A stretch of 64,000 nt of DNA from Escherichia coli (lineage in GTDB: Bacteria > Pseudomonadota > Gammaproteobacteria > Enterobacterales > Enterobacteriaceae), in the NCBI RefSeq assembly GCF_001677475.2, contig NZ_CP015229.1. One strand, given 5' to 3'. Made by a program: the position numbers and the translations under genes. The first letter of the stretch is position 1. Each line of letters starts with the position of its first letter. Below, piece after piece: positions 3,580 to 62,673 of the stretch. The notes below the pieces were generated by a model, which saw only the letters and a list, made by a program, of their open reading frames with translations, had not been told where the DNA came from and ran no database searches.

Positions 3580-4374
3580 TTATTCGTCGTGCGAGATTAT
3601 CGCCGGGATGGTGTCATCCTTGCGTAGCGTCAAAATTTCGCAGCCGTTATCAGTCACCACAATAGTATGCTCGTATTGTGCAGACAAGCTGCGATCTTTG
3701 GTTTTTACCGTCCATCCATCTTTCATGGTGCGGATCTCTTTTTTACCCGCGTTGACCATTGGCTCGATGGTGAACGTCATCCCCGGTTTCAGCACGACGT
3801 TGGTTTCACGGGAGTCATAGTGCAGCACCTGCGGTTCTTCATGGAAGCCGCGACCAATACCGTGTCCACAATATTCACGAACGACGGAGAAGCCTTCTGC
3901 TTCGACAAACTTCTGAATCGCCGCACCGATTTCGCGCAGATTAATGCCAGGTTTTACCATGCCCAGCGCCAGGTACAGGCTTTCTTGCGTGATGCGGCAC
4001 AGACGTTCGCCCATGATGGTCGGCTTACCGACGATAAACATTTTCGATGTATCGCCGTGGAAACCATCTTTGATTACGGTGACATCAATGTTAACGATAT
4101 CGCCATCTTTCAGCAGCTTAGCATCGTCCGGAATACCGTGGCACACCACTTCATTAATAGAAATGCAAACGGATTTCGGATAGCCGTGATAGCCGAGGCA
4201 GGCAGAAACCGCGTGTTGTTCATTAACAATGTAATCATTACAGATGCGATCCAGCTCGCCGGTGCTGACGCCCGGTTTAACATACGGTTCGATCATCTCC
4301 AGCACTTCGGCAGCCAGTCGGCCAGCGACGCGCATTTTTTCGATATCTTCTGGGGTCTTGATTGAGATAGCCAT
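3580..4374 (-). CDS. map: Methionine aminopeptidase
   Basis: 264-aa ORF MAISIKTPEDIEKMRVAGRLAAEVLEMIEPYVKPGVSTGELDRICNDYIV...; classic E. coli Map. Confidence 0.95.
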   Translation of the reverse strand: MAISIKTPEDIEKMRVAGRLAAEVLEMIEPYVKPGVSTGELDRICNDYIVNEQHAVSACLGYHGYPKSVCISINEVVCHGIPDDAKLLKDGDIVNIDVTVIKDGFHGDTSKMFIVGKPTIMGERLCRITQESLYLALGMVKPGINLREIGAAIQKFVEAEGFSVVREYCGHGIGRGFHEEPQVLHYDSRETNVVLKPGMTFTIEPMVNAGKKEIRTMKDGWTVKTKDRSLSAQYEHTIVVTDNGCEILTLRKDDTIPAIISHDE

Positions 4375-43628: not shown

Positions 43629-43705
43629 GGAGCGGTAGTTCAGTCGGTTAGAATACCTGCCTGTCACGCAGGGGGTCGCGGGTTCGAGTCCCGTCCGTTC
43701 CGCCA
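43629..43705 (+). tRNA. aspU: tRNA-Asp (anticodon GTC), distal tRNA of the rrn operon
   Basis: ggagcggtagttcagtcggttagaatacctgcctgtcacgcagggggtcgcgggttcgagtcccgtccgttccgcca, 77 nt. Confidence 0.95.
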
Positions 43706-51841: not shown

Positions 51842-51918
51842 AACACAACGCGGAGCGGTAGTTCAGTCGGTTAGAATACCTGCCTGTCACGCAGGGGGTC
51901 GCGGGTTCGAGTCCCGTC
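51842..51918 (+). tRNA. aspV: tRNA-Asp (anticodon GTC)
   Basis: Identical 77-nt sequence to aspU; located after dnaQ as in K-12. Confidence 0.95.
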
Positions 51919-51925
51919 CGTTCCG

Positions 51926-51966
51926 CCAATATTCAGAAAGCCCGAATCAGTAATGATTCGGGCTTT
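51926..51966 (+). terminator. aspV terminator
   Basis: gaaagcccgaatc-agtaat-gattcgggctttc followed by gtcgtttt. Confidence 0.65.
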
Positions 51967-52059: not shown

Positions 52060-53106
52060 TTACTCCAGCGCATCCCATTTTTCCAGCAGTTCTACTGGAA
52101 TTTCATTTATTACCTCCGAGAAGCGTTTTCCGACCAGGCGTTCTGCCTGGCGCAGCAAAGGAATGGTCGGGCTGCTCGGTTCGCTGTGCTCAAACCAGCG
52201 ACGGATGACACGCAGGCGTTCCAGCGCGTCGTTCCGGTCGCGGATCTGCCGGGGTTCTGCGCCGGACATCGGTGATATTTCCTCCGCGATATGCACCGGT
52301 AGCGCAATCTGCTCTGATGATATCTCTTCAGTATGAACGATGGTGGTGCTCTCCGGCTGTTCAGCCACTGGTTGTGGCAGGATCTCCGGCGTGGTGGTCC
52401 GTATCGCTCCCGGCAACAGGGCCAGCAATTGTGTCAGACGGGATAGGTTCGGTGCCTGGTCATTCAGCGTTTCACGCGCATGGCGTTGCAGCCGCTCAGT
52501 GGTCTCTGCGGCCTGGCGAAAGGCATCCAGCGGCAGTGTGCCGCGCGCCTCCAGGTCGGCCAGTTGCTGGCGTACCGATTCTGGTGCCAGCGCATCCGCC
52601 GGGCGTGATGCAGACAGCGAACGCTCCACATCCCGTACCTGAAGGCGTATGGCAGCATTGTTTGACAGTGTAATGCCACGAATATCCGCTATTACGCCTT
52701 CATGGTCCAGCAACGCCGCCAGGGCGTTACTACGTGCCACTGCCGCCTCTTCGGCGGTGATATCTTCAGTCGCGAGCAGTTGAGGATGGATGGCGTTCGG
52801 GTACGTGGCGCACAACGTTTCCAGCAGCGCGAGCGCCTCCGCCAGTCCCCTGGCACCGGCCTGCTGGATACGGCAGCGCAGCAGGACAACCAGAATGCGG
52901 ATATCTTTGCTGCGCGTCAGCAGGCGGCAGGCATCCCGCTCAAGCTCCGCCCAGTTAATGGTTTCCGGCGTACTGACAAAATCGCCGTATTGCGCTTCTT
53001 CACGCGGTGCGGCGCGCGTGAACAGTAGCAGGTATTCCGGATCGTACTCCAGATCCGGGCCGCAGGGGCATTCTGCCGAAATTGGGTCAGACAGGGATGT
53101 ATCCAT
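52060..53106 (-). CDS. tssA: T6SS protein TssA (ImpA N-terminal domain family)
   Basis: 348-aa ORF MDTSLSDPISAECPCGPDLEYDPEYLLLFTRAAPREEAQYGDFVSTPETINWAELERDACRLLTRSKDIRILVVLL, the ImpA_N signature pattern. Confidence 0.8.
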   Translation of the reverse strand: MDTSLSDPISAECPCGPDLEYDPEYLLLFTRAAPREEAQYGDFVSTPETINWAELERDACRLLTRSKDIRILVVLLRCRIQQAGARGLAEALALLETLCATYPNAIHPQLLATEDITAEEAAVARSNALAALLDHEGVIADIRGITLSNNAAIRLQVRDVERSLSASRPADALAPESVRQQLADLEARGTLPLDAFRQAAETTERLQRHARETLNDQAPNLSRLTQLLALLPGAIRTTTPEILPQPVAEQPESTTIVHTEEISSEQIALPVHIAEEISPMSGAEPRQIRDRNDALERLRVIRRWFEHSEPSSPTIPLLRQAERLVGKRFSEVINEIPVELLEKWDALE

Positions 53107-53116
53107 TAAATTATCC

Positions 53117-54112
53117 TCAGTGCGCCAGGTAGTGTTCTGGTTCGAAAATCATGCCCGTCACCGGGTTTTCGTGCATGGCTTTACCCGCCCATGCGGTCCA
53201 GCCCAGTTGGTACGAACCACCGGTAACAGCCGGAGGGGCGGCGTGGGGCTTTAGCTGTAGCTCAATTTCCCAGCAGTATTCAAAACCGCTAAAGGAGCGG
53301 ACCAGTTCTGTCAGGACTGGCAGGTTATTGCCGCCAGGCAGAAAACGTCGGTAATCCTCCAGCGTCAGCGGGCCGATAACCAGCCGGAACTTATACTGCA
53401 TGTCCGGCACGGCCTGGCCGATGAGTGCACCGTTGCCAATAACGGAAGAGGGGGCTGGCATCCCCAGCCGGGTGATCTCATCGTCCGCCACGGCTATCCA
53501 GTGCAGGACATACTCCTGTATCCGGAAAGGTACACCGAAATAGTGCGCCAGCGTGGTGGCCAGACCGTCCGGATTGCGGGACTCACGCACCAGATGGGCC
53601 GATGCCGCCAGGCGAGCGTGATCCTGCAACGGGCTGTCGGCGCTCTCCCGCAAATCCTGCCCGCTGAGGCTGGCGATATAAAAGGCAAAACGGTCATGTT
53701 GCGGTTTATCCAGACCGCCCCCAGCGGACTGGGCGCTGCGCCATGCCTGGTAAAACTGCGTCAGCCAGCGGTGATGAAAAAGATCAGAAAAACGGGTTAG
53801 CGTCGGGTCTCTTCGGCTTTCAGTCCGGTTGTGCGCCAGTTCGGTGTAGTGCAGCGGCAGTGGACCGTTCGGCCCCCACAGCCCGAGACTGTACAAACTG
53901 ATATGCAGCCGCTCTTCCTGCCAGCTCACACTGGCGATTTCCCGTGGCGCAAAGGTCAGCGCGGGAGTTTGTCCGAGGCGAAATTTTTCCATCCGTGGTT
54001 GCCAGGTGTTGCCTGCCGGAACAGTACACAACTGCACATCCACGCGGCGCATCAGGTTCAGAAAACCGTAACGCCAGGGGGTTTCCTGCGCCTGAGTGAA
54101 ATCGTCGCTCAT
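53117..54112 (-). CDS. tssG: T6SS baseplate subunit TssG
   Basis: 331-aa ORF MSDDFTQAQETPWRYGFLNLMRRVDVQL..., immediately downstream of and 4-nt overlapping tssF. Confidence 0.8.
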   Translation of the reverse strand: MSDDFTQAQETPWRYGFLNLMRRVDVQLCTVPAGNTWQPRMEKFRLGQTPALTFAPREIASVSWQEERLHISLYSLGLWGPNGPLPLHYTELAHNRTESRRDPTLTRFSDLFHHRWLTQFYQAWRSAQSAGGGLDKPQHDRFAFYIASLSGQDLRESADSPLQDHARLAASAHLVRESRNPDGLATTLAHYFGVPFRIQEYVLHWIAVADDEITRLGMPAPSSVIGNGALIGQAVPDMQYKFRLVIGPLTLEDYRRFLPGGNNLPVLTELVRSFSGFEYCWEIELQLKPHAAPPAVTGGSYQLGWTAWAGKAMHENPVTGMIFEPEHYLAH

Positions 54113-55992
54113 ACGCTTCCCCGCTGTCCCGCCCTGGCAGGCCAGGTCATAATTTTGCCGCGCTGCATGCTGTGCAGCGTCATCTGCGAGAAGGTATTAA
54201 TGGAAACATGACGGGCGATATAGTGCTCCAACACCAGACCGAACAGATACGGACTGATACCGGAGAACCCCTCCTCATCCACGGTCAGTTCACAACTGAC
54301 GCCGCGCCCATAGACCAGCAGCCCGGAACCGGGCAGACGGCGGGTGACCGGGGTGGTGTTGCAGCCAATCAGGCTGCGCACCTGGCGCGACTGCGGACTG
54401 TCATGCGCCGGAATAAACAGGTTAAGCAGATCGCGCAGCGCCTGACCACCGGTACGGTGATCCAGATCGGCCAGCGGCAGATAGTTAAAGGATAACTGGC
54501 GGATCAACCGCCAGGCCATTTCACGTTCAGCCAGCGGAGGCTGCGGCGGACGCGGCGGACGGATAAGCCCCACGCCCGCCACCGGGATGGCCGCATCCAC
54601 GGTCAGATCGTCCCGTCCATTGCGGGCAATAAGACAGGGCAGATCGCGGTTGGTGACCATAGCCGTGATGGTGATATGGCGCAGATTTTCCGGGTATGGC
54701 GCTTCATACTGGTCAACCAGCGACAGGAACACTTCTGATCCTGTATAGGAGGTGCGGGTGCCATAGCGGCGGGCATTTTCCGACAACCGGCGCGGCTCCC
54801 GGCGCAGGGAAAAATAACGTCCGTGATTGCCTTCATCATTATTGCGGGTGTGGTAGAGCGGGCGAAAGGCCATCTTCCGTGTGGTGTCAGTTTCCAGCCC
54901 TTCCACTTCCTGGACCGAGAACACCTCATAATCCAGCGGATGGGTTCTGTCCACCACCAGATGCTGTTCCGTCGTGCTGTGCGTGACATCGATCCGGGCG
55001 GCGACTCGGGGAAACAGGTTGATAACCGGGGTACAGAACAGACTGAACTGTGCCGCGTTTGTCTGGTGGATCAGCCAGTCCGGCGGCAGGCGGTTCAGCA
55101 GGATAACAATCTCCGCCACTCCGCCTTCAATTTTCTGTAACCCGGCAGACAGGCCTGTCGGGGTGAAAAAAAAGAAGCGTTCCGGACAGGTAAAATATTC
55201 ATGTAGCAGGTTATGGCCGTGAAACACATTCCACGCCAGCGGCAACAGTCCCTGATCCGGATCCAGGCCTTCGTACATAACGGGCTGTTTCAGATTCACA
55301 TCCAGTGCGCCGTCAAAATGCCCCGGAATGCCAGCCAGGCTCGCGATGGCGCTGGTATGCAGTAGTTCGAACAGGTGTGAGGCCGTGCGCTCCTCGCCGC
55401 AGAGATAAAATGGTAGCTTGTTCAGCCCTGCAAGCTGACTGAACGTCAGTTCACCAAAGGTGCGCAGGGTAATACGCAGCGCACCAGCGACGTGAATGTT
55501 GGCTGGCAGGTAGCGGTGCAGGGCAGGCATATCCGGCGGCGCGGCGGTCAGGCGCACCTCTTCGATGGCAAGCGGCCACAGCGTCACATTCTGGCTGCTA
55601 CGAAACTGGCAGGCAGTACTTTCGCCTTCCGGAATGGCGGAAAAAAAGGCCGTGTTGCGCGGGACGGTGAATCCCTTCGCCAGATCGCCTTCTTCCGGAT
55701 CGGGATGAAGCTGCGCCACGCTCATTGAGGGCGTGGGTGTGACGTAATTGGGGCTGACCACTTCCAGCAGGCGCTGGGTGAAACGGGGGAATTCAGCGTC
55801 AATTTTTAGCTGCGTGCGGGCGGTCAGGAAGCTGAAGGCCTCGACCATTCGCTCCACATACGGATCGGCAATATCCGTTCCCTGCATACCCAGTCGGGCG
55901 GCGACTTTAGGATGACGGGCGGCAAATTCGGCTCCCGTTTCCCGCAGATAGCTCAGTTCGCGGTTGTAGTATTCCAGTAGCCGTGGATCCAT
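54109..55992 (-). CDS. tssF: T6SS baseplate subunit TssF
   Basis: 627-aa ORF with the characteristic TssF N-terminus MDPRLLEYYNRELSYLRETGAEFAARHPKVAARLGM. Confidence 0.88.
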   Translation of the reverse strand: MDPRLLEYYNRELSYLRETGAEFAARHPKVAARLGMQGTDIADPYVERMVEAFSFLTARTQLKIDAEFPRFTQRLLEVVSPNYVTPTPSMSVAQLHPDPEEGDLAKGFTVPRNTAFFSAIPEGESTACQFRSSQNVTLWPLAIEEVRLTAAPPDMPALHRYLPANIHVAGALRITLRTFGELTFSQLAGLNKLPFYLCGEERTASHLFELLHTSAIASLAGIPGHFDGALDVNLKQPVMYEGLDPDQGLLPLAWNVFHGHNLLHEYFTCPERFFFFTPTGLSAGLQKIEGGVAEIVILLNRLPPDWLIHQTNAAQFSLFCTPVINLFPRVAARIDVTHSTTEQHLVVDRTHPLDYEVFSVQEVEGLETDTTRKMAFRPLYHTRNNDEGNHGRYFSLRREPRRLSENARRYGTRTSYTGSEVFLSLVDQYEAPYPENLRHITITAMVTNRDLPCLIARNGRDDLTVDAAIPVAGVGLIRPPRPPQPPLAEREMAWRLIRQLSFNYLPLADLDHRTGGQALRDLLNLFIPAHDSPQSRQVRSLIGCNTTPVTRRLPGSGLLVYGRGVSCELTVDEEGFSGISPYLFGLVLEHYIARHVSINTFSQMTLHSMQRGKIMTWPARAGQRGSV

Positions 55993-58562: not shown

Positions 58563-61196
58563 ATGGACACTCCTGTTTCGCGCAGTGCACTGTATGGAAA
58601 GCTAACCAAATCTTTGTTTAGATCTTTGGAATCTGCGACGACGTTCTGTAAATTACGCGCTAATCCTTATGTCGAACTGACGCATTGGTTGCATCAGTTA
58701 ATACAACAACCAGAGAATGACATTCACAATGTGCTTCGACATTATCAAATAACATCTGCTGATGTTGAGAAGGCGTTAATTCAGCAATTGAATATATTGC
58801 CTGCCGGAGCGAGTGTAATTAACGATTTTTCCCATCATATCGATCTTTCTGTTGAAAAAGCCTGGATGTTGGCAAGTATCCGCTTTGGCGATCAAAAAAT
58901 TCGTAGTGGATGGTTATTACTTGCCTGGTTAACCACGCCAGAATTGTGTCGGGTGTTAAAAAATATTTGTGCGCCATTGGCAGAGCTGCCGGTAGATGAA
59001 CTATTAGATATTCTTCCGTCTTTAATCACTTCATCTCCTGAATTAACAGAAATGCCTTATGACTGCTCGGATTTAAATTCTGCAGTACCGGGGGAAGCTA
59101 GCCAGGTCTTTGCCGGCGAATCAACCGGAAGCAAATCCGCGCTGGCGAAATACTGCCAGGACATGACTGCGCTGGCCCGTGAAGGCAATATCGATCCGGT
59201 CACCGGTCGCGAACACGAGATCCGTACTATGACGGATATTCTGCTGCGCCGTCGCCAGAACAACCCGCTACTGACCGGCGAAGCGGGAGTCGGGAAAACG
59301 GCAGTGGTGGAAGGATTCGCGCTGGCGATTGCCGGGGGGGAAGTACCGCCTTCACTGCGTAACGTGCGGTTGCTGTCACTGGATGTTGGAGCGCTGCTGG
59401 CTGGGGCGTCCATGAAGGGTGAATTTGAATCCCGCCTGAAAGCGTTGCTAGAAGAGGCCGCGCGCTCGCCGCAGCCGGTAATCCTTTTTGTTGATGAAGT
59501 TCACACGCTGGTGGGCGCTGGTGGTACATCCGGTACGGGGGATGCTGCCAACCTGCTGAAACCGGCGCTGGCGCGTGGCACCCTGCGCACCATCGGCGCA
59601 ACCACCTGGAGCGAGTACAAACGCCATATCGAAAAGGATCCGGCGCTGACTCGGCGTTTTCAGGTATTGCAGGTTGCTGAGCCGGAAGAGGTTGCGGCTG
59701 TTGAGATGGTACGCGGGTTAGTCACCACGCTTGAAAAACACCATGACGTGCTGATCCTTGATGAGGCCGTGCGCGCCGCCGTACAGCTTTCTCACCGTTA
59801 CATTCCGGCCCGGCAACTACCGGATAAGGCCATCAGCCTGCTGGATACGGCGGCGGCCCGTGTAGCGCTGTCGCTGCATACCCCGCCTGCGAGAGTCCAG
59901 TATCTGCGCCAGCAGCTCAACGCTGCCGAACTGGAGCAGGTGTTGTTATTAAAGCAGGAAAAAATGGGTATCCGCTCGGAGCGGGGCGATGTACTGACGG
60001 CGCGGATTATATCGCTTAATGCCGATCTTTCTGACACCGAAGCGCGGTGGCAGCAGGAACTGGAGTTGGTTCGCAGTTTACAGGAGCAACGCGGCGCAGC
60101 GCCTGGCGAGCGCGACGAAATCACTCTACAACAGGCAGAAACGGCATTAAGAGGCTGGCAGGGTGAAAACCCCGTCGTGTACCCGGAAGTCAGTGCAACC
60201 GTGGTGGCAGAGATTGTCTCCGACTGGACCGGTATTCCCGCCGGACGGATGGTGAAAGATGAAGCCAGTCAGATACTGGAATTGCCCACCCGTTTGGCGC
60301 AGCGTGTTACCGGGCAGATGGATGCGTTGGCGCAGATTGGCGAGCGTATCCAGACCGCGCGGGCGGGTTTAGGTGACCCGCGTAAGCCTGTGGGTGTCTT
60401 TTTGCTGGCCGGGCCGTCCGGAGTAGGCAAGACTGAGACCGCGCTGGCACTGGTAGAAGCAATCTATGGCGGTGAACAGAATCTGATCACCATCAACATG
60501 AGCGAGTATCAGGAGTCTCACACAGTCTCCACTCTGAAAGGCGCGCCGCCCGGCTACGTCGGTTATGGCGAAGGCGGCGTGTTGACGGAAGCGGTACGCC
60601 GCCATCCCTGGAGCGTGGTATTGCTGGATGAAATTGAAAAAGCCCATCACGACGTCCACGAGCTGTTCTTCCAGGTGTTTGATAAGGGGGCGATGGAAGA
60701 TGGCGAAGGTGTCCACATCGATTTCAAAAATACCACGCTGTTGTTGACGACTAACGCGGGGGCGGAACTTATCAGCCAGCTCTGTGAGGATCCGGCGCTG
60801 ATGCCCGATTCGGCAGGGTTAAAAGAGGCGTTAATGCCGGAGTTACGTAAACACTTCCCGGCGGCTTTCCTGGGGCGTGTGACGGTTATTCCTTATTTAC
60901 CGCTGGATGAGACCGCGCGTGGTGTTATTGCCCGCCTGCATCTTGGCAGATTGATGGCTCGGATGGCGGAGCAGCATGGCGTTTCACTGGTGTATGGCGA
61001 TGAACTGATTACGCATATTGTGTCGCGCTGCCCGATGCACGAGACCGGCGCTCGTTTGCTCATCGGCTATATCGAACAACATATCCTCCCACAACTGTCC
61101 CGTTATTGGTTGCAGGCGATGACAGAGAAAACGGCCATCACGCAAATCCGCATTCGTGTTGATGAGGATGAACAGATTATTTTTGAAACGGATTAA
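58563..61196 (+). CDS. clpV: T6SS AAA+ ATPase ClpV (TssH)
   Basis: 877-aa ORF with two AAA+ modules: Walker A GEAGVGKTAV and GPSGVGKTETA, Clp N-domain-like N-terminus. Confidence 0.92.
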   Translation: MDTPVSRSALYGKLTKSLFRSLESATTFCKLRANPYVELTHWLHQLIQQPENDIHNVLRHYQITSADVEKALIQQLNILPAGASVINDFSHHIDLSVEKAWMLASIRFGDQKIRSGWLLLAWLTTPELCRVLKNICAPLAELPVDELLDILPSLITSSPELTEMPYDCSDLNSAVPGEASQVFAGESTGSKSALAKYCQDMTALAREGNIDPVTGREHEIRTMTDILLRRRQNNPLLTGEAGVGKTAVVEGFALAIAGGEVPPSLRNVRLLSLDVGALLAGASMKGEFESRLKALLEEAARSPQPVILFVDEVHTLVGAGGTSGTGDAANLLKPALARGTLRTIGATTWSEYKRHIEKDPALTRRFQVLQVAEPEEVAAVEMVRGLVTTLEKHHDVLILDEAVRAAVQLSHRYIPARQLPDKAISLLDTAAARVALSLHTPPARVQYLRQQLNAAELEQVLLLKQEKMGIRSERGDVLTARIISLNADLSDTEARWQQELELVRSLQEQRGAAPGERDEITLQQAETALRGWQGENPVVYPEVSATVVAEIVSDWTGIPAGRMVKDEASQILELPTRLAQRVTGQMDALAQIGERIQTARAGLGDPRKPVGVFLLAGPSGVGKTETALALVEAIYGGEQNLITINMSEYQESHTVSTLKGAPPGYVGYGEGGVLTEAVRRHPWSVVLLDEIEKAHHDVHELFFQVFDKGAMEDGEGVHIDFKNTTLLLTTNAGAELISQLCEDPALMPDSAGLKEALMPELRKHFPAAFLGRVTVIPYLPLDETARGVIARLHLGRLMARMAEQHGVSLVYGDELITHIVSRCPMHETGARLLIGYIEQHILPQLSRYWLQAMTEKTAITQIRIRVDEDEQIIFETD

Positions 61197-61386
61197 TGGA
61201 GCATCCTTATGGCAAAAGAATTAAGTGGCGCACTGTGGTTCAGTCGCTTTCCTGGAAGTTCTTCCACTAATGATTTGCAGGGGACTTTTCGTGCATCGGT
61301 AGATAATTTTTTGCGCGCGCATTGGTAATGCGCGTGCAAGGGTCAGTATCTCTGCAACATATCGCCCTCCCGCCAGAGCATATCTC

Positions 61387-61773
61387 ATGCACTGGTCATG
61401 GTTGATTGCTCATGAAATCGTTCAGGCAAAAAACGTCCCGGCGATGGAGGGGGTGGATATTGAGTGGGTTCACCCGACTGAGCAAGCCTCGCTTGAAGCG
61501 GCGCAGGCTATGGTTACGGCCTATGGTATTAATAATCTGAATGTCGCGCCTGCACTGAGCTCCAACCATACACGCGGTACTGCGATAGATATGAATATCA
61601 GTTGGAGCGGAACATTAACAATTGCGGGGAGCAATGGTCAGAATGTTGCAATTAATACACTACCTCGAACCGGAATGAATGCCCAGCTTCAGGCGGTAGG
61701 TCTGGGTTACGGCGTCAGAAAATTTGTTGGCGGCAATACAGATATACCTCACTGGTCAATTGATGGACATTAA
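61387..61773 (+). CDS. Candidate T6SS effector: small zinc metallopeptidase of the VanY/peptidase M15 (LAS) type, predicted peptidoglycan peptidase
   Basis: 128-aa ORF, no signal peptide, no Cys; exact VanY-type motif S59-N-H61-T-R-G64-T-A66-I-D68 (SxHxxGxAxD) at nt 61561-61590 and C-terminal His in IPHWSIDGH; located between clpV and tssB. Confidence 0.5.
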   Translation: MHWSWLIAHEIVQAKNVPAMEGVDIEWVHPTEQASLEAAQAMVTAYGINNLNVAPALSSNHTRGTAIDMNISWSGTLTIAGSNGQNVAINTLPRTGMNAQLQAVGLGYGVRKFVGGNTDIPHWSIDGH

Positions 61774-61775
61774 GT

Positions 61776-62066
61776 ATGACATTTCGTTATCCGATGTTGT
61801 TGACATTCCTGTTAATGATGTTCGCTTTCTGTGTTCAGGGGGAACCGCCTTTACCACAGGATGTGCAGCATTTTCTGAGTAATGCGGAAATGTGCCAGCA
61901 TCTTGCTGGTGAATGGGACAGTTCTTTACCAAAGAAGGATAAAAGAGACATCGAAAAGGGGGTTGATACCTGGTGTCCTCCGGCGAAGAAATCACTCCCT
62001 GTGCTGCGGGAAAAGTACAAAGAAAACAAAGAGATTATAAAAATACTCTCTGCGTATGATTTTTAA
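61776..62066 (+). CDS. Candidate periplasmic immunity protein for the upstream peptidase
   Basis: 96-aa ORF starting 2 nt after the peptidase stop; N-terminal Sec-type signal peptide MTFRYPMLLTFLLMMFAFCVQG; two Cys in mature part; Lys/Glu-rich C-terminus. Confidence 0.45.
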   Translation: MTFRYPMLLTFLLMMFAFCVQGEPPLPQDVQHFLSNAEMCQHLAGEWDSSLPKKDKRDIEKGVDTWCPPAKKSLPVLREKYKENKEIIKILSAYDF

Positions 62067-62127
62067 ACTGTACCGTCGGGCCACTCTCCAGGTGGTCGTC
62101 GGCTGACTGATAAGGAAATGAAGGATT

Positions 62128-62673
62128 ATGGCTATCAACAACAGCGCGCAGAAGTTTATTGCCCGCAACCGCGCGCCCCGCGTGCAGATTGAGTATGACG
62201 TTGAGATTTACGGCTCCGAGAAAAAAATCGAACTGCCGTTTGTCATGGCGGTGCTGGCCGATCTGGCTGGTAAACCACGCGAAGAGCTGCCACCGGTCAC
62301 CGATCGTAAATTCCTTGATATTGATATCGATAACTTCAACGAGCGGATGAAAGCCATTGCGCCGCGCGTGGCGTTTGCTGTCCCCAATACGCTGACGGGC
62401 GAAGGGCAGTTAATGGTCGATATCACGCTGGAGAATATGGACGATTTTTCGCCTGCGCAGATTGCCCGTAAGGTGGATGCCCTGAACCAGCTGCTGGAAG
62501 CGCGTACTCAGCTTGCCAACCTACAAACGTATATGGATGGTAAAGCGGGAGCAGAAAATCTTATCAACAAACTATTACAAGACCCTACGTTACTGAAAGC
62601 TCTGGCTAGTGCGCCAAAACCTGTCGCTCAACAGGAAAGTGTCTTATCAGGTGAAACGGGAACAGCAGACTAA
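62128..62673 (+). CDS. tssB: T6SS contractile sheath small subunit TssB (VipA)
   Basis: 181-aa ORF MAINNSAQKFIARNRAPRVQIEYDVEIYGSEKKIELPFVMAVLADLAGKP..., classic VipA pattern. Confidence 0.9.
   Translation: MAINNSAQKFIARNRAPRVQIEYDVEIYGSEKKIELPFVMAVLADLAGKPREELPPVTDRKFLDIDIDNFNERMKAIAPRVAFAVPNTLTGEGQLMVDITLENMDDFSPAQIARKVDALNQLLEARTQLANLQTYMDGKAGAENLINKLLQDPTLLKALASAPKPVAQQESVLSGETGTAD

Follow-up and report, generated by a model that had tools for sequence, protein, structure and literature searches.

LAS-type metallopeptidase domains have been predicted as type VI secretion system (T6SS) toxin domains before. M15-like and MepA-like domains are listed in WHIX effectors (PMC12135965) and in Acinetobacter baumannii Tpe14 (Peptidase_M15_3; PMC6833914). 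The closest described case lies in variable region 1 (VR1) of Salmonella pathogenicity island 6 (SPI-6), between tssH and tssB, where an unannotated open reading frame (ORF) of 32 amino acids (aa), described as an "L-Ala-D-Glu endopeptidase" (ChiX-like), is followed by a gene for a signal-peptide protein of 146 aa (Blondel et al. 2023, PMC10469887). The two were proposed as a new effector-immunity module (PMC10469887) and were later tallied across serotypes (PMC11669294). Here we analysed a 64,000-nucleotide (nt) stretch of an Escherichia coli-type chromosome, called the window below, which carries a pair of genes between clpV/tssH and tssB of a T6SS island. The original prediction made for this pair had called the cargo a possibly under-described class. 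Given the Salmonella candidate at the same position and the M15-like domains of WHIX effectors and Tpe14, this is not wholly so.

We consider it probable that positions 61209-62066 hold a T6SS cargo effector-immunity module in the aspV island, in which the gene of a LAS-fold zinc peptidase is frameshifted and the gene of its periplasmic immunity protein is intact. The two ORFs of the original prediction, at 61387-61773 (128 aa) and 61776-62066 (96 aa), lie 2 nt apart between clpV and tssB as described, and the SNHTRGTAID motif at residues 59-68 and the C-terminal IPHWSIDGH of the 128-aa ORF were both confirmed. Its view of the 128-aa ORF as a small stand-alone peptidase had to be given up. This ORF is a fragment of a frameshifted 187-aa gene and not a gene itself. 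The features of the pair are as follows.

61209-61773, plus strand: whole effector gene, 565 nt here and 564 nt in relatives, 187 aa when intact (DNA alignment, annotated coding sequences of relatives, repaired translation)
61209-61328, plus strand: N-terminal fragment ORF of 39 aa (MAKELSG...FLRAHW, then TAA), product of the frameshift (frame translation)
61321, plus strand: inserted A, +1 frameshift
61363-61365, plus strand: Arg52 codon (YRPP motif), between the frameshift and the ATG of the 128-aa ORF, translated by neither ORF
61387-61773, plus strand: 128-aa ORF (ATG), residues 60-187 of the full protein
61561-61590, plus strand: SNHTRGTAID motif with the predicted zinc ligands H120 and D127 in full-length numbering (conservation, local VanX alignment)
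61588-61590, plus strand: D127 codon, GAT in the window
61741-61758, plus strand: DIPHWS motif, with D178 the predicted general base and H181 the predicted third zinc ligand (invariant in 267-268 of 268 representatives)
61776-62066, plus strand: candidate immunity gene, 96 aa, intact, starting after a 2-nt gap
61776-61841, plus strand: predicted Sec signal peptide, residues 1-22 (MTFRYPMLLTFLLMMFAFCVQG, followed by E; hydropathy, low predicted local distance difference test score (pLDDT) there)

The interval from the clpV stop codon to the ATG at 61387 is not intergenic. An ORF opens at 61209 (MAKELSGALWFSRFPG...), 12 nt after the clpV/tssH stop, and closes 39 codons later, at 61328. The reading frame that contains the 128-aa ORF is likewise open 5' of the ATG, where it reads ...GNARARVSISATYRPPARAYL-MHWSW. 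In E. coli A34 and E. coli 2012C-4221, the same interval is a single 564-nt coding sequence for 187 aa, separated by 12 nt from tssH and by 2 nt from the 96-aa gene. DNA alignment with these two strains revealed one extra A at 61321 in the window (GCGCGCGC-A-TTGG), by which the frame is lost at effector codon 38. Of 5426 complete E. coli genomes, 117 contained the locus by a megablast search with positions 61150-62130. Among the 25 matches listed, identity was 98.4-99.4% and every match spanned 980 bases against the 981-base query; the closest relative, 2012C-4221, is 99.4% identical. A 71-nt query centred on the extra base had no perfect match in any of the 107 complete E. coli genomes with this stretch. 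The insertion is private to the window sequence.

Deleting the extra A in silico gave a 187-aa protein with two changes, V11F and M107I, that set it apart from its closest relatives and are private to the window. The two underlying differences are both G>T (61239 and 61530), and the V11F site holds only V, I, A, T or a gap among 120 representatives. All three private changes in the 564-nt effector gene are disruptive or non-synonymous, and the neighbouring 96-aa protein is identical to that of 2012C-4221. The effector gene looks like one in decay because the insertion lies outside a homopolymer run and these three changes stand beside an unchanged immunity protein. The 128-aa ORF is without residues 1-59 of the full protein and thus about a third of the fold; a helix, a core strand and the near-invariant Arg52 all fall in this missing part. 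Because it is a fragment of a frameshifted gene, the window most likely encodes no active effector, and its immunity gene is intact. Programmed frameshifting was rejected: the extra base is present in no relative, and no start codon precedes the ATG at 61387 in that frame.

The intact 187-aa protein is predicted to have the LAS, or Hedgehog/DD-peptidase, fold of VanY, VanX and the phage L-Ala-D-Glu peptidases. Its AlphaFold2 model has a pLDDT of 92.2 and a predicted template-modelling score of 0.83, and the top 20 Foldseek matches in the PDB were all LAS/M15 enzymes (Ply500, E 1e-4, probability 1.0). The zinc-ligand signature of these enzymes is present as H120-x6-D127 and D178-x-x-H181, and all four residues are encoded in the 128-aa ORF of the window. 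Among 268 family representatives, H120, D127 and D178 are each kept in 267 and H181 in all 268; R52 is kept in about 264 of 266. Conservation does not extend to the terminal His187; the histidine that is conserved is H181, which is H122 of the 128-aa ORF and the very residue picked out as near-terminal His in the original prediction. The DIPHWS motif parallels E-x-x-H of VanX. By motif order, we take the VanX counterparts to be R71 (within GYRP), H116, D123, E181 and H184, and the equivalence of R52 (YRPP) with VanX R71 is one of motif order only. Compared with the phage L-Ala-D-Glu peptidases, the protein has an additional N-terminal helix-strand unit with conserved motifs (W10, F27, F34), and W86-x-H88 is invariant.

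Sequence profiles gave a different picture from the fold. Pfam Peptidase_M15_4 (PF13539) matched below threshold, with independent E-values of 0.053 for the 128-aa ORF and 0.12 for the 187-aa protein, over only 16-17 residues at the S-x-H-x-x-G-x-A-x-D motif; neither protein had a significant match to Pfam VanY (PF02557). The best NCBIfam match, DdpX, was also sub-threshold (E 0.024, 14 bits against a cut-off of 176). A PHROGs scan of both proteins gave nothing above threshold, and a PDB sequence search, with the single sequence and with the family profile, returned no relevant match. For hhalign, a VanX-A sequence was first verified by 100% identity to annotated plasmid genes. The family profile aligned with it in a 17-column local match (probability 8.6%) that puts SNHTRGTAID on SSHSRGSAID, and the E-value against VanY-A was 0.16. 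Because the hhalign match is a short one at the zinc motif, we do not claim membership of M15 at the sequence-profile level, and the LAS link rests on fold and motif. The proposed LAS/M15 likeness is thereby borne out in the fold and in the near-invariant H-x6-D...H, and not in any significant M15 profile match by Pfam, NCBIfam or hhalign. The nearest structures mix L-Ala-D-Glu endopeptidases with D-Ala carboxypeptidases and dipeptidases; the intact protein would, on this model, bind zinc and act on peptidoglycan.

Some alleles carry the name "peptidoglycan-binding domain-containing protein" from the NCBI annotation pipeline (PGAP), although Pfam scans found no peptidoglycan-binding domain in the 187-aa protein. 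The name may have been inherited from longer relatives with PG_binding_1 upstream of the peptidase domain.

The effector has no hydrophobic segment and no Cys. By hydropathy, which is a crude test of export signals, its maximum was 0.58 for an 11-residue window within the first 40 residues and 0.71 for a 19-residue window over the whole protein. A hydrophobic N-terminus is absent from the 128-aa ORF as well as from the intact protein, in line with the leaderless peptidase first proposed, and was found in 0 of 24 stand-alone family representatives (<=235 aa). The 96-aa protein, on the other hand, has a strong N-terminal hydrophobic segment, with a hydropathy maximum of 2.59 over residues 8-18. 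The signal peptide proposed for it is supported, and its count of two cysteines needs amending: the precursor has three, C19 within the signal peptide and C40 and C67 in the mature part, the latter two invariant in the family. The invariant residues of the immunity family are C40, H42, G45, E46 and C67, arranged as C-x-H-x-x-G-E with the second Cys 26-27 residues on. The model of the 96-aa protein is a three-helix bundle with a pLDDT of about 97 for the mature part. Neighbouring helices carry C40 and C67, an arrangement that would allow a periplasmic disulfide, and the His/Glu pair of C-x-H-x-x-G-E might reach the zinc site of the effector. A Foldseek search with this model found no related solved structure (best E 0.88). 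A weak NCBIfam match to the StoA/ResA thiol-disulfide oxidoreductases was rejected, as it scored 28.6 bits against a cut-off of 210, the protein has no CxxC and its model is helical.

All 9 distinct loci read have, next after the effector gene, a partner gene whose product carries a signal peptide or a lipobox, with the two frames overlapping or abutting. These loci are the window with three E. coli alleles, a SPI-6-like contig, Intestinirhabdus, Pectobacterium, Ralstonia, Herbaspirillum and two metagenomic Burkholderiales-type contigs. The partner is a homologue of the 96-aa protein in five lineages and belongs to another family in two. This second partner family, in two Betaproteobacteria-type loci, is a 173-aa protein in one (locus L005, 8617-9138) and the N-terminal part of a 369-aa protein in the other (locus L009, 8620-9729). 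Its members share the motif DPH.(E/Q)GY.L.L...FG.FC..TGIE.PC and are unrelated to the 96-aa family.

The pair sits between tssH and tssB in E. coli, in Salmonella and in the SPI-6-like contig. The effector gene of Ralstonia flaminis and of Herbaspirillum frisingense is immediately preceded by a PAAR gene, which overlaps or abuts it, and VgrG genes were found 3-8 kb from the pair in two other genomes. The PAAR proteins of Ralstonia and Herbaspirillum (locus L005, 7457-8053; locus L007, 7415-8008) share a C-terminal extension of about 70 residues (YD.xF...Y.L.L.DG....GVTDE.G.T..), which may be an adaptor holding the effector cargo. Ralstonia also has a second, weaker PAAR-like gene just before the PAAR gene.

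The effector family is large. A word-indexed search yielded 304 clusters at 90% identity, and a hidden Markov model search of 1.84 billion representatives yielded 1134 clusters at 50% identity with E<=1e-3, 575 of them with E<=1e-30. The family has no Pfam model, and its members are annotated as "hypothetical" or, misleadingly, as "peptidoglycan-binding domain-containing protein". Among the 150 best-scoring representatives listed, the peptidase domain is C-terminal in every longer protein. The N-terminal partners in 66 longer proteins include PAAR (3), eCIS core (3), PG_binding_1 (5), PKD, SH3_3, SLT, GH19 and lipases, and two PAAR fusions of the effector domain were identified. This architecture is the pattern of a cell-wall-directed polymorphic toxin domain.

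Some alleles of other strains suggest a series in which toxin activity is lost and the immunity gene is kept. E. coli A34 has AAT (Asn) in place of the GAT that encodes D127 in the window. Exact genome matches to 71-nt queries numbered 15 for the Asp allele and 90 for the Asn allele, so that the effector may be catalytically impaired in most E. coli carriers. The sole representative without Asp at position 127 among the 268 is the cluster that represents this E. coli Asn allele. In the Asp-allele strains SCU-171 and Rb-50, tssH, the effector, the immunity gene, tssB and tssC are all intact; the Rb-50 effector is WP_083575636.1. T6SS core genes have decayed in some other strains that keep the Asp allele. 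In 2012C-4221, tssH is annotated only as a truncated 493-aa "AAA family ATPase" (locus L002, 1566-3047), and in ETEC1738 an IS66-family element interrupts tssC (locus L018, 4645-7071).

Salmonella homologues of the 96-aa protein are 76-94% identical to it and include gene calls of 140 aa and 145 aa. In Salmonella enterica GCA_039528615.1 (locus 3900-3998), MPKELSGAQWV is joined in frame to YGVTKFVGGNTDKPHWSIDGH between tssH and the immunity gene. Of the 187-aa protein, the 32-aa Salmonella ORF retains 11 residues at the N-terminus and 21 at the C-terminus, with residues 12-166 lost. Judged from its sequence, the published 32-aa candidate is an in-frame deletion remnant that cannot be an enzyme, because these ends are joined without R52, H120 and D127; those serotypes would therefore carry an orphan immunity gene and not a toxin. 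In Salmonella enterica GCA_033043355.1 (locus 3794-3998), a frameshift and a deletion join YLMHWS to IDGH, between two HWS motifs. The immunity gene persists in the Salmonella loci from which the effector is deleted, and tssH and tssB are kept. An intact 187-aa copy, 80% identical, is present in the SPI-6-like contig. Together, the frameshift of the window, the two Salmonella deletions and D127N suggest, at the level of sequence, repeated loss of toxin activity with immunity retained. Separately, in Salmonella enterica subsp. salamae a 140-aa call with an immunity homologue lies in an 8-kb locus that has no effector similarity and no called tssH or tssB. A DDE transposase fragment is nearby, and the locus has the look of a degraded region with an orphan immunity gene.

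The effector-immunity reading explains these data best because the peptidase has no signal peptide, a signal-peptide partner follows it in all loci, and the family is linked or fused to PAAR. We propose that the effector, without a Sec signal, would be loaded on the T6SS as an Hcp-type small cargo in enterobacterial clusters and through PAAR, encoded upstream or fused, in Burkholderiales. It would be injected into the periplasm of a neighbouring cell and would cleave a peptide bond of the peptidoglycan stem, the candidate activities being those of an L-Ala-D-Glu endopeptidase or of a D-Ala carboxypeptidase-type enzyme. The predicted active site is formed by H120 and D127 (S-x-H-x-x-G-x-A-I-D), H181 and D178 (D-x-P-H-W-S), and R52. 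Sister cells would be protected by the co-transcribed periplasmic immunity protein, a putative disulfide-braced three-helix bundle. The window strain would make no active toxin, and its immunity protein could still protect it against relatives with an active allele. A T6SS toxin with periplasmic immunity, as first suggested for this pair, is thus upheld for the family, which is leaderless, has a constant partner and is linked to the T6SS and PAAR; it fails for the effector gene of the window, which is broken.

Several observations weigh against this proposal. Two stand-alone pairs are orphans: T6SS genes are absent up to 8 kb away. An N-terminal hydrophobic segment is seen in about 30% of the longer family members, and therefore the domain is also used by Sec-exported multidomain enzymes and is not specific to the T6SS. 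Literature searches found no biochemical or genetic test of any family member. Finally, the frameshift is a single-base difference, unique among the 107 complete E. coli genomes.

This last point would fit another view, namely that the extra A is a sequencing or assembly error and that the strain has an intact 187-aa effector in a fully functional module. The two remaining private differences are both G>T, which could be error-like, and elsewhere the locus matches E. coli 2012C-4221 at 99.4% identity. We nevertheless think an error unlikely. Homopolymer runs are the usual place of indel errors, and this insertion (GCGCGCGC-A-TTGG) lies outside any such run. Moreover, the pattern of private changes beside an unchanged immunity protein fits relaxed selection, and the same gene has been independently inactivated in Salmonella.

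The neighbouring T6SS core genes and the Ply500-like fold raise the question whether the enzyme instead serves the producing cell, as an accessory LAS L,D-endopeptidase that opens the cell's own peptidoglycan for T6SS assembly. Acinetobacter TagX is a VanY/Ply500-like L-Ala-D-Glu endopeptidase in a T6SS cluster, needed for Hcp secretion (PMC5061870), and Ply500 is the top structural match of the 187-aa protein. TagX, however, is predicted to have two transmembrane segments, which put its domain in the periplasm (PMC5061870), whereas the 187-aa protein is without a hydrophobic segment. The record of the effector does not fit an essential assembly factor: of 5426 complete E. coli genomes only 107-117 have it, most of these carriers show a zinc-ligand substitution in it, and Salmonella clusters with tssH and tssB still in place have lost it. 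An assembly enzyme would likewise have no need of a constant signal-peptide partner, and the orphan pairs away from T6SS clusters and the PAAR-linked or PAAR-fused forms point away from such a role. We regard this function as very unlikely.

An even smaller chance is given to a cytoplasmic dipeptidase of the VanX/DdpX type cleaving D-Ala-D-Ala, or a peptidoglycan-recycling enzyme, beside an unrelated small secreted protein. The best NCBIfam match (DdpX, E 0.024), the VanX motif order, a residue numbering close to that of VanX and the missing export signal all agree with it. It leaves unexplained that the partner gene co-occurs with overlapping or abutting frames in all nine loci, in Gamma- and Betaproteobacteria, that the domain is linked and fused to PAAR, that its other N-terminal fusion partners are cell-wall-binding or secretion-related, and that the gene lies in a T6SS operon. 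Least credible of all is expression of the 128-aa ORF from the ATG at 61387 as a functional miniature M15 peptidase: it has a start codon, H120, D127, D178 and H181, and a size near that of its structural neighbours, the small phage L-Ala-D-Glu peptidases (130-150 aa), but it begins inside helix 54-67 of the model, is without helix 25-40, strand 44-49 and the near-invariant R52 and R56, and has as its only family counterparts starting there truncated fragments (P0009, 109 aa; P0030, 126 aa), while all intact relatives start 12 nt after tssH and no in-frame start precedes 61387.

Returning to the effector-immunity module, a broader extension of it can be offered tentatively, as a conjecture that we think doubtful in its full form. 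The 187-aa protein could be the first recognisable full-length member of a large LAS toxin-domain family (>1100 clusters) used by the T6SS (as stand-alone, PAAR-linked and PAAR-fused forms), by eCIS-type systems and by Sec-exported lytic enzymes, with a new immunity fold that may plug the zinc site, and with the toxin repeatedly discarded in Escherichia and Salmonella. If so, the frameshift, the two Salmonella deletions and D127N in 90 of 107 E. coli carriers would be a natural "disarmed but still immune" series, and the D127N protein might be kept for a non-catalytic role.

The window is a chromosome segment in which the rrnH operon is followed by dkgB, yafC, mltD, gloB and dnaQ, a tRNA-Asp gene and the T6SS island. 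The island has tssA, tssG, tssF, tssE, tagJ and tagK on the minus strand and clpV/tssH, the ORF pair and tssB on the plus strand. The neighbouring features are as follows.

43629-43705: second tRNA-Asp gene, which ends the rRNA operon
51852-51928: tRNA-Asp gene (aspV), directly before tssA, the chromosomal boundary of the T6SS island
52060-53106, minus strand: tssA
58563-61196, plus strand: clpV/tssH, 877 aa; a gene of the same length is annotated tssH in E. coli A34, SCU-171 and Rb-50
62128-62673, plus strand: tssB, sheath small subunit; the identical gene is annotated in relatives

The clpV/tssH protein of the window differs from that of Rb-50 at 12 aa. A promoter and terminator scan from clpV to tssB gave no signal above shuffle expectation. 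ARAGORN called a 94-nt tRNA-His gene at 54233-54326 on the minus strand, inside the tssF ORF span (54109-55992); this call is probably false. Close relatives differ in the cargo that follows tssC, with Tae4/Tai4 in A34 and 2012C-4221 and BPSL0067-family and STY0301-family proteins in SCU-171 and Rb-50; the window ends before this position.

For the window itself the finding is modest, a broken toxin gene beside an intact immunity gene. The concept of a T6SS pair that targets peptidoglycan is expected. The useful parts are the definition of the family, the correction of the Salmonella candidate and the natural allele series. If our proposal is right, it would define a family of >1100 clusters that is currently without a Pfam model, and the series of active, D127N, frameshifted and deleted alleles would provide natural controls for competition work and a case study of effector loss with immunity retention.

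Compared with known systems, the pair is closest to the Salmonella SPI-6 candidate, which it resembles in position, in gene family and in the prediction of a LAS-type peptidase with periplasmic immunity. The difference lies in the state of the effector gene, a 32-aa deletion remnant there, an intact 187-aa gene in E. coli and the SPI-6-like contig, and a frameshifted gene in the window. The phage L-Ala-D-Glu peptidases (Ply500 2VO9, LysB4 and the T5 and RB49 endolysins) and Serratia ChiX (MEROPS M15C) have only 12-17% identity to the 187-aa protein and no significant profile match. The phage enzymes are delivered by holins and spanins, whereas the 187-aa protein would be delivered by the T6SS and has an immunity partner. 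The VanY/LdcB/DacB carboxypeptidases and the VanX/DdpX dipeptidases (M15B, M15D) act in cell-wall maturation or vancomycin resistance, unlike the presumed interbacterial toxin setting of the present family.

TagX (Weber et al. 2016, PMC5061870) is, like the effector, a peptidase of the LAS/VanY superfamily encoded inside a T6SS cluster, and it was modelled on Ply500. It is membrane-anchored, essential for Hcp secretion, conserved and without an immunity partner. The effector, in contrast, is soluble, sporadic, often inactivated, linked to PAAR in other lineages and always paired with a periplasmic partner. The domains of WHIX effectors and Tpe14 are recognisable as M15 by Pfam or CDD and are fused to WHIX or to LysM/M23, whereas the present family has no Pfam model and stands alone in enterobacteria.

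The Tae1-4/Tai1-4 and Tlde1/Tldi1 pairs likewise consist of a small leaderless cargo beside a periplasmic immunity gene in variable regions of SPI-6-type clusters, and Tae4-Tai4 is found after tssC in the close relatives A34 and 2012C-4221. The Tae enzymes are papain-like Cys-His amidases, and Tlde1, of the YkuD type, likewise uses a catalytic Cys. A Tae1-4-type amidase was ruled out for the 187-aa protein, which has a LAS fold and is without any cysteine. To our knowledge, the experimentally known T6SS enzymes that cut the peptides of peptidoglycan are cysteine enzymes (Tae1-4, Tlde1, TseH) or metallopeptidases of the M23 or HExxH type. If the proposal holds, the T6SS weaponry of E. coli and Salmonella would gain a further bond-cleaving chemistry from a VanY/Ply500-like LAS enzyme that has an immunity family of its own.

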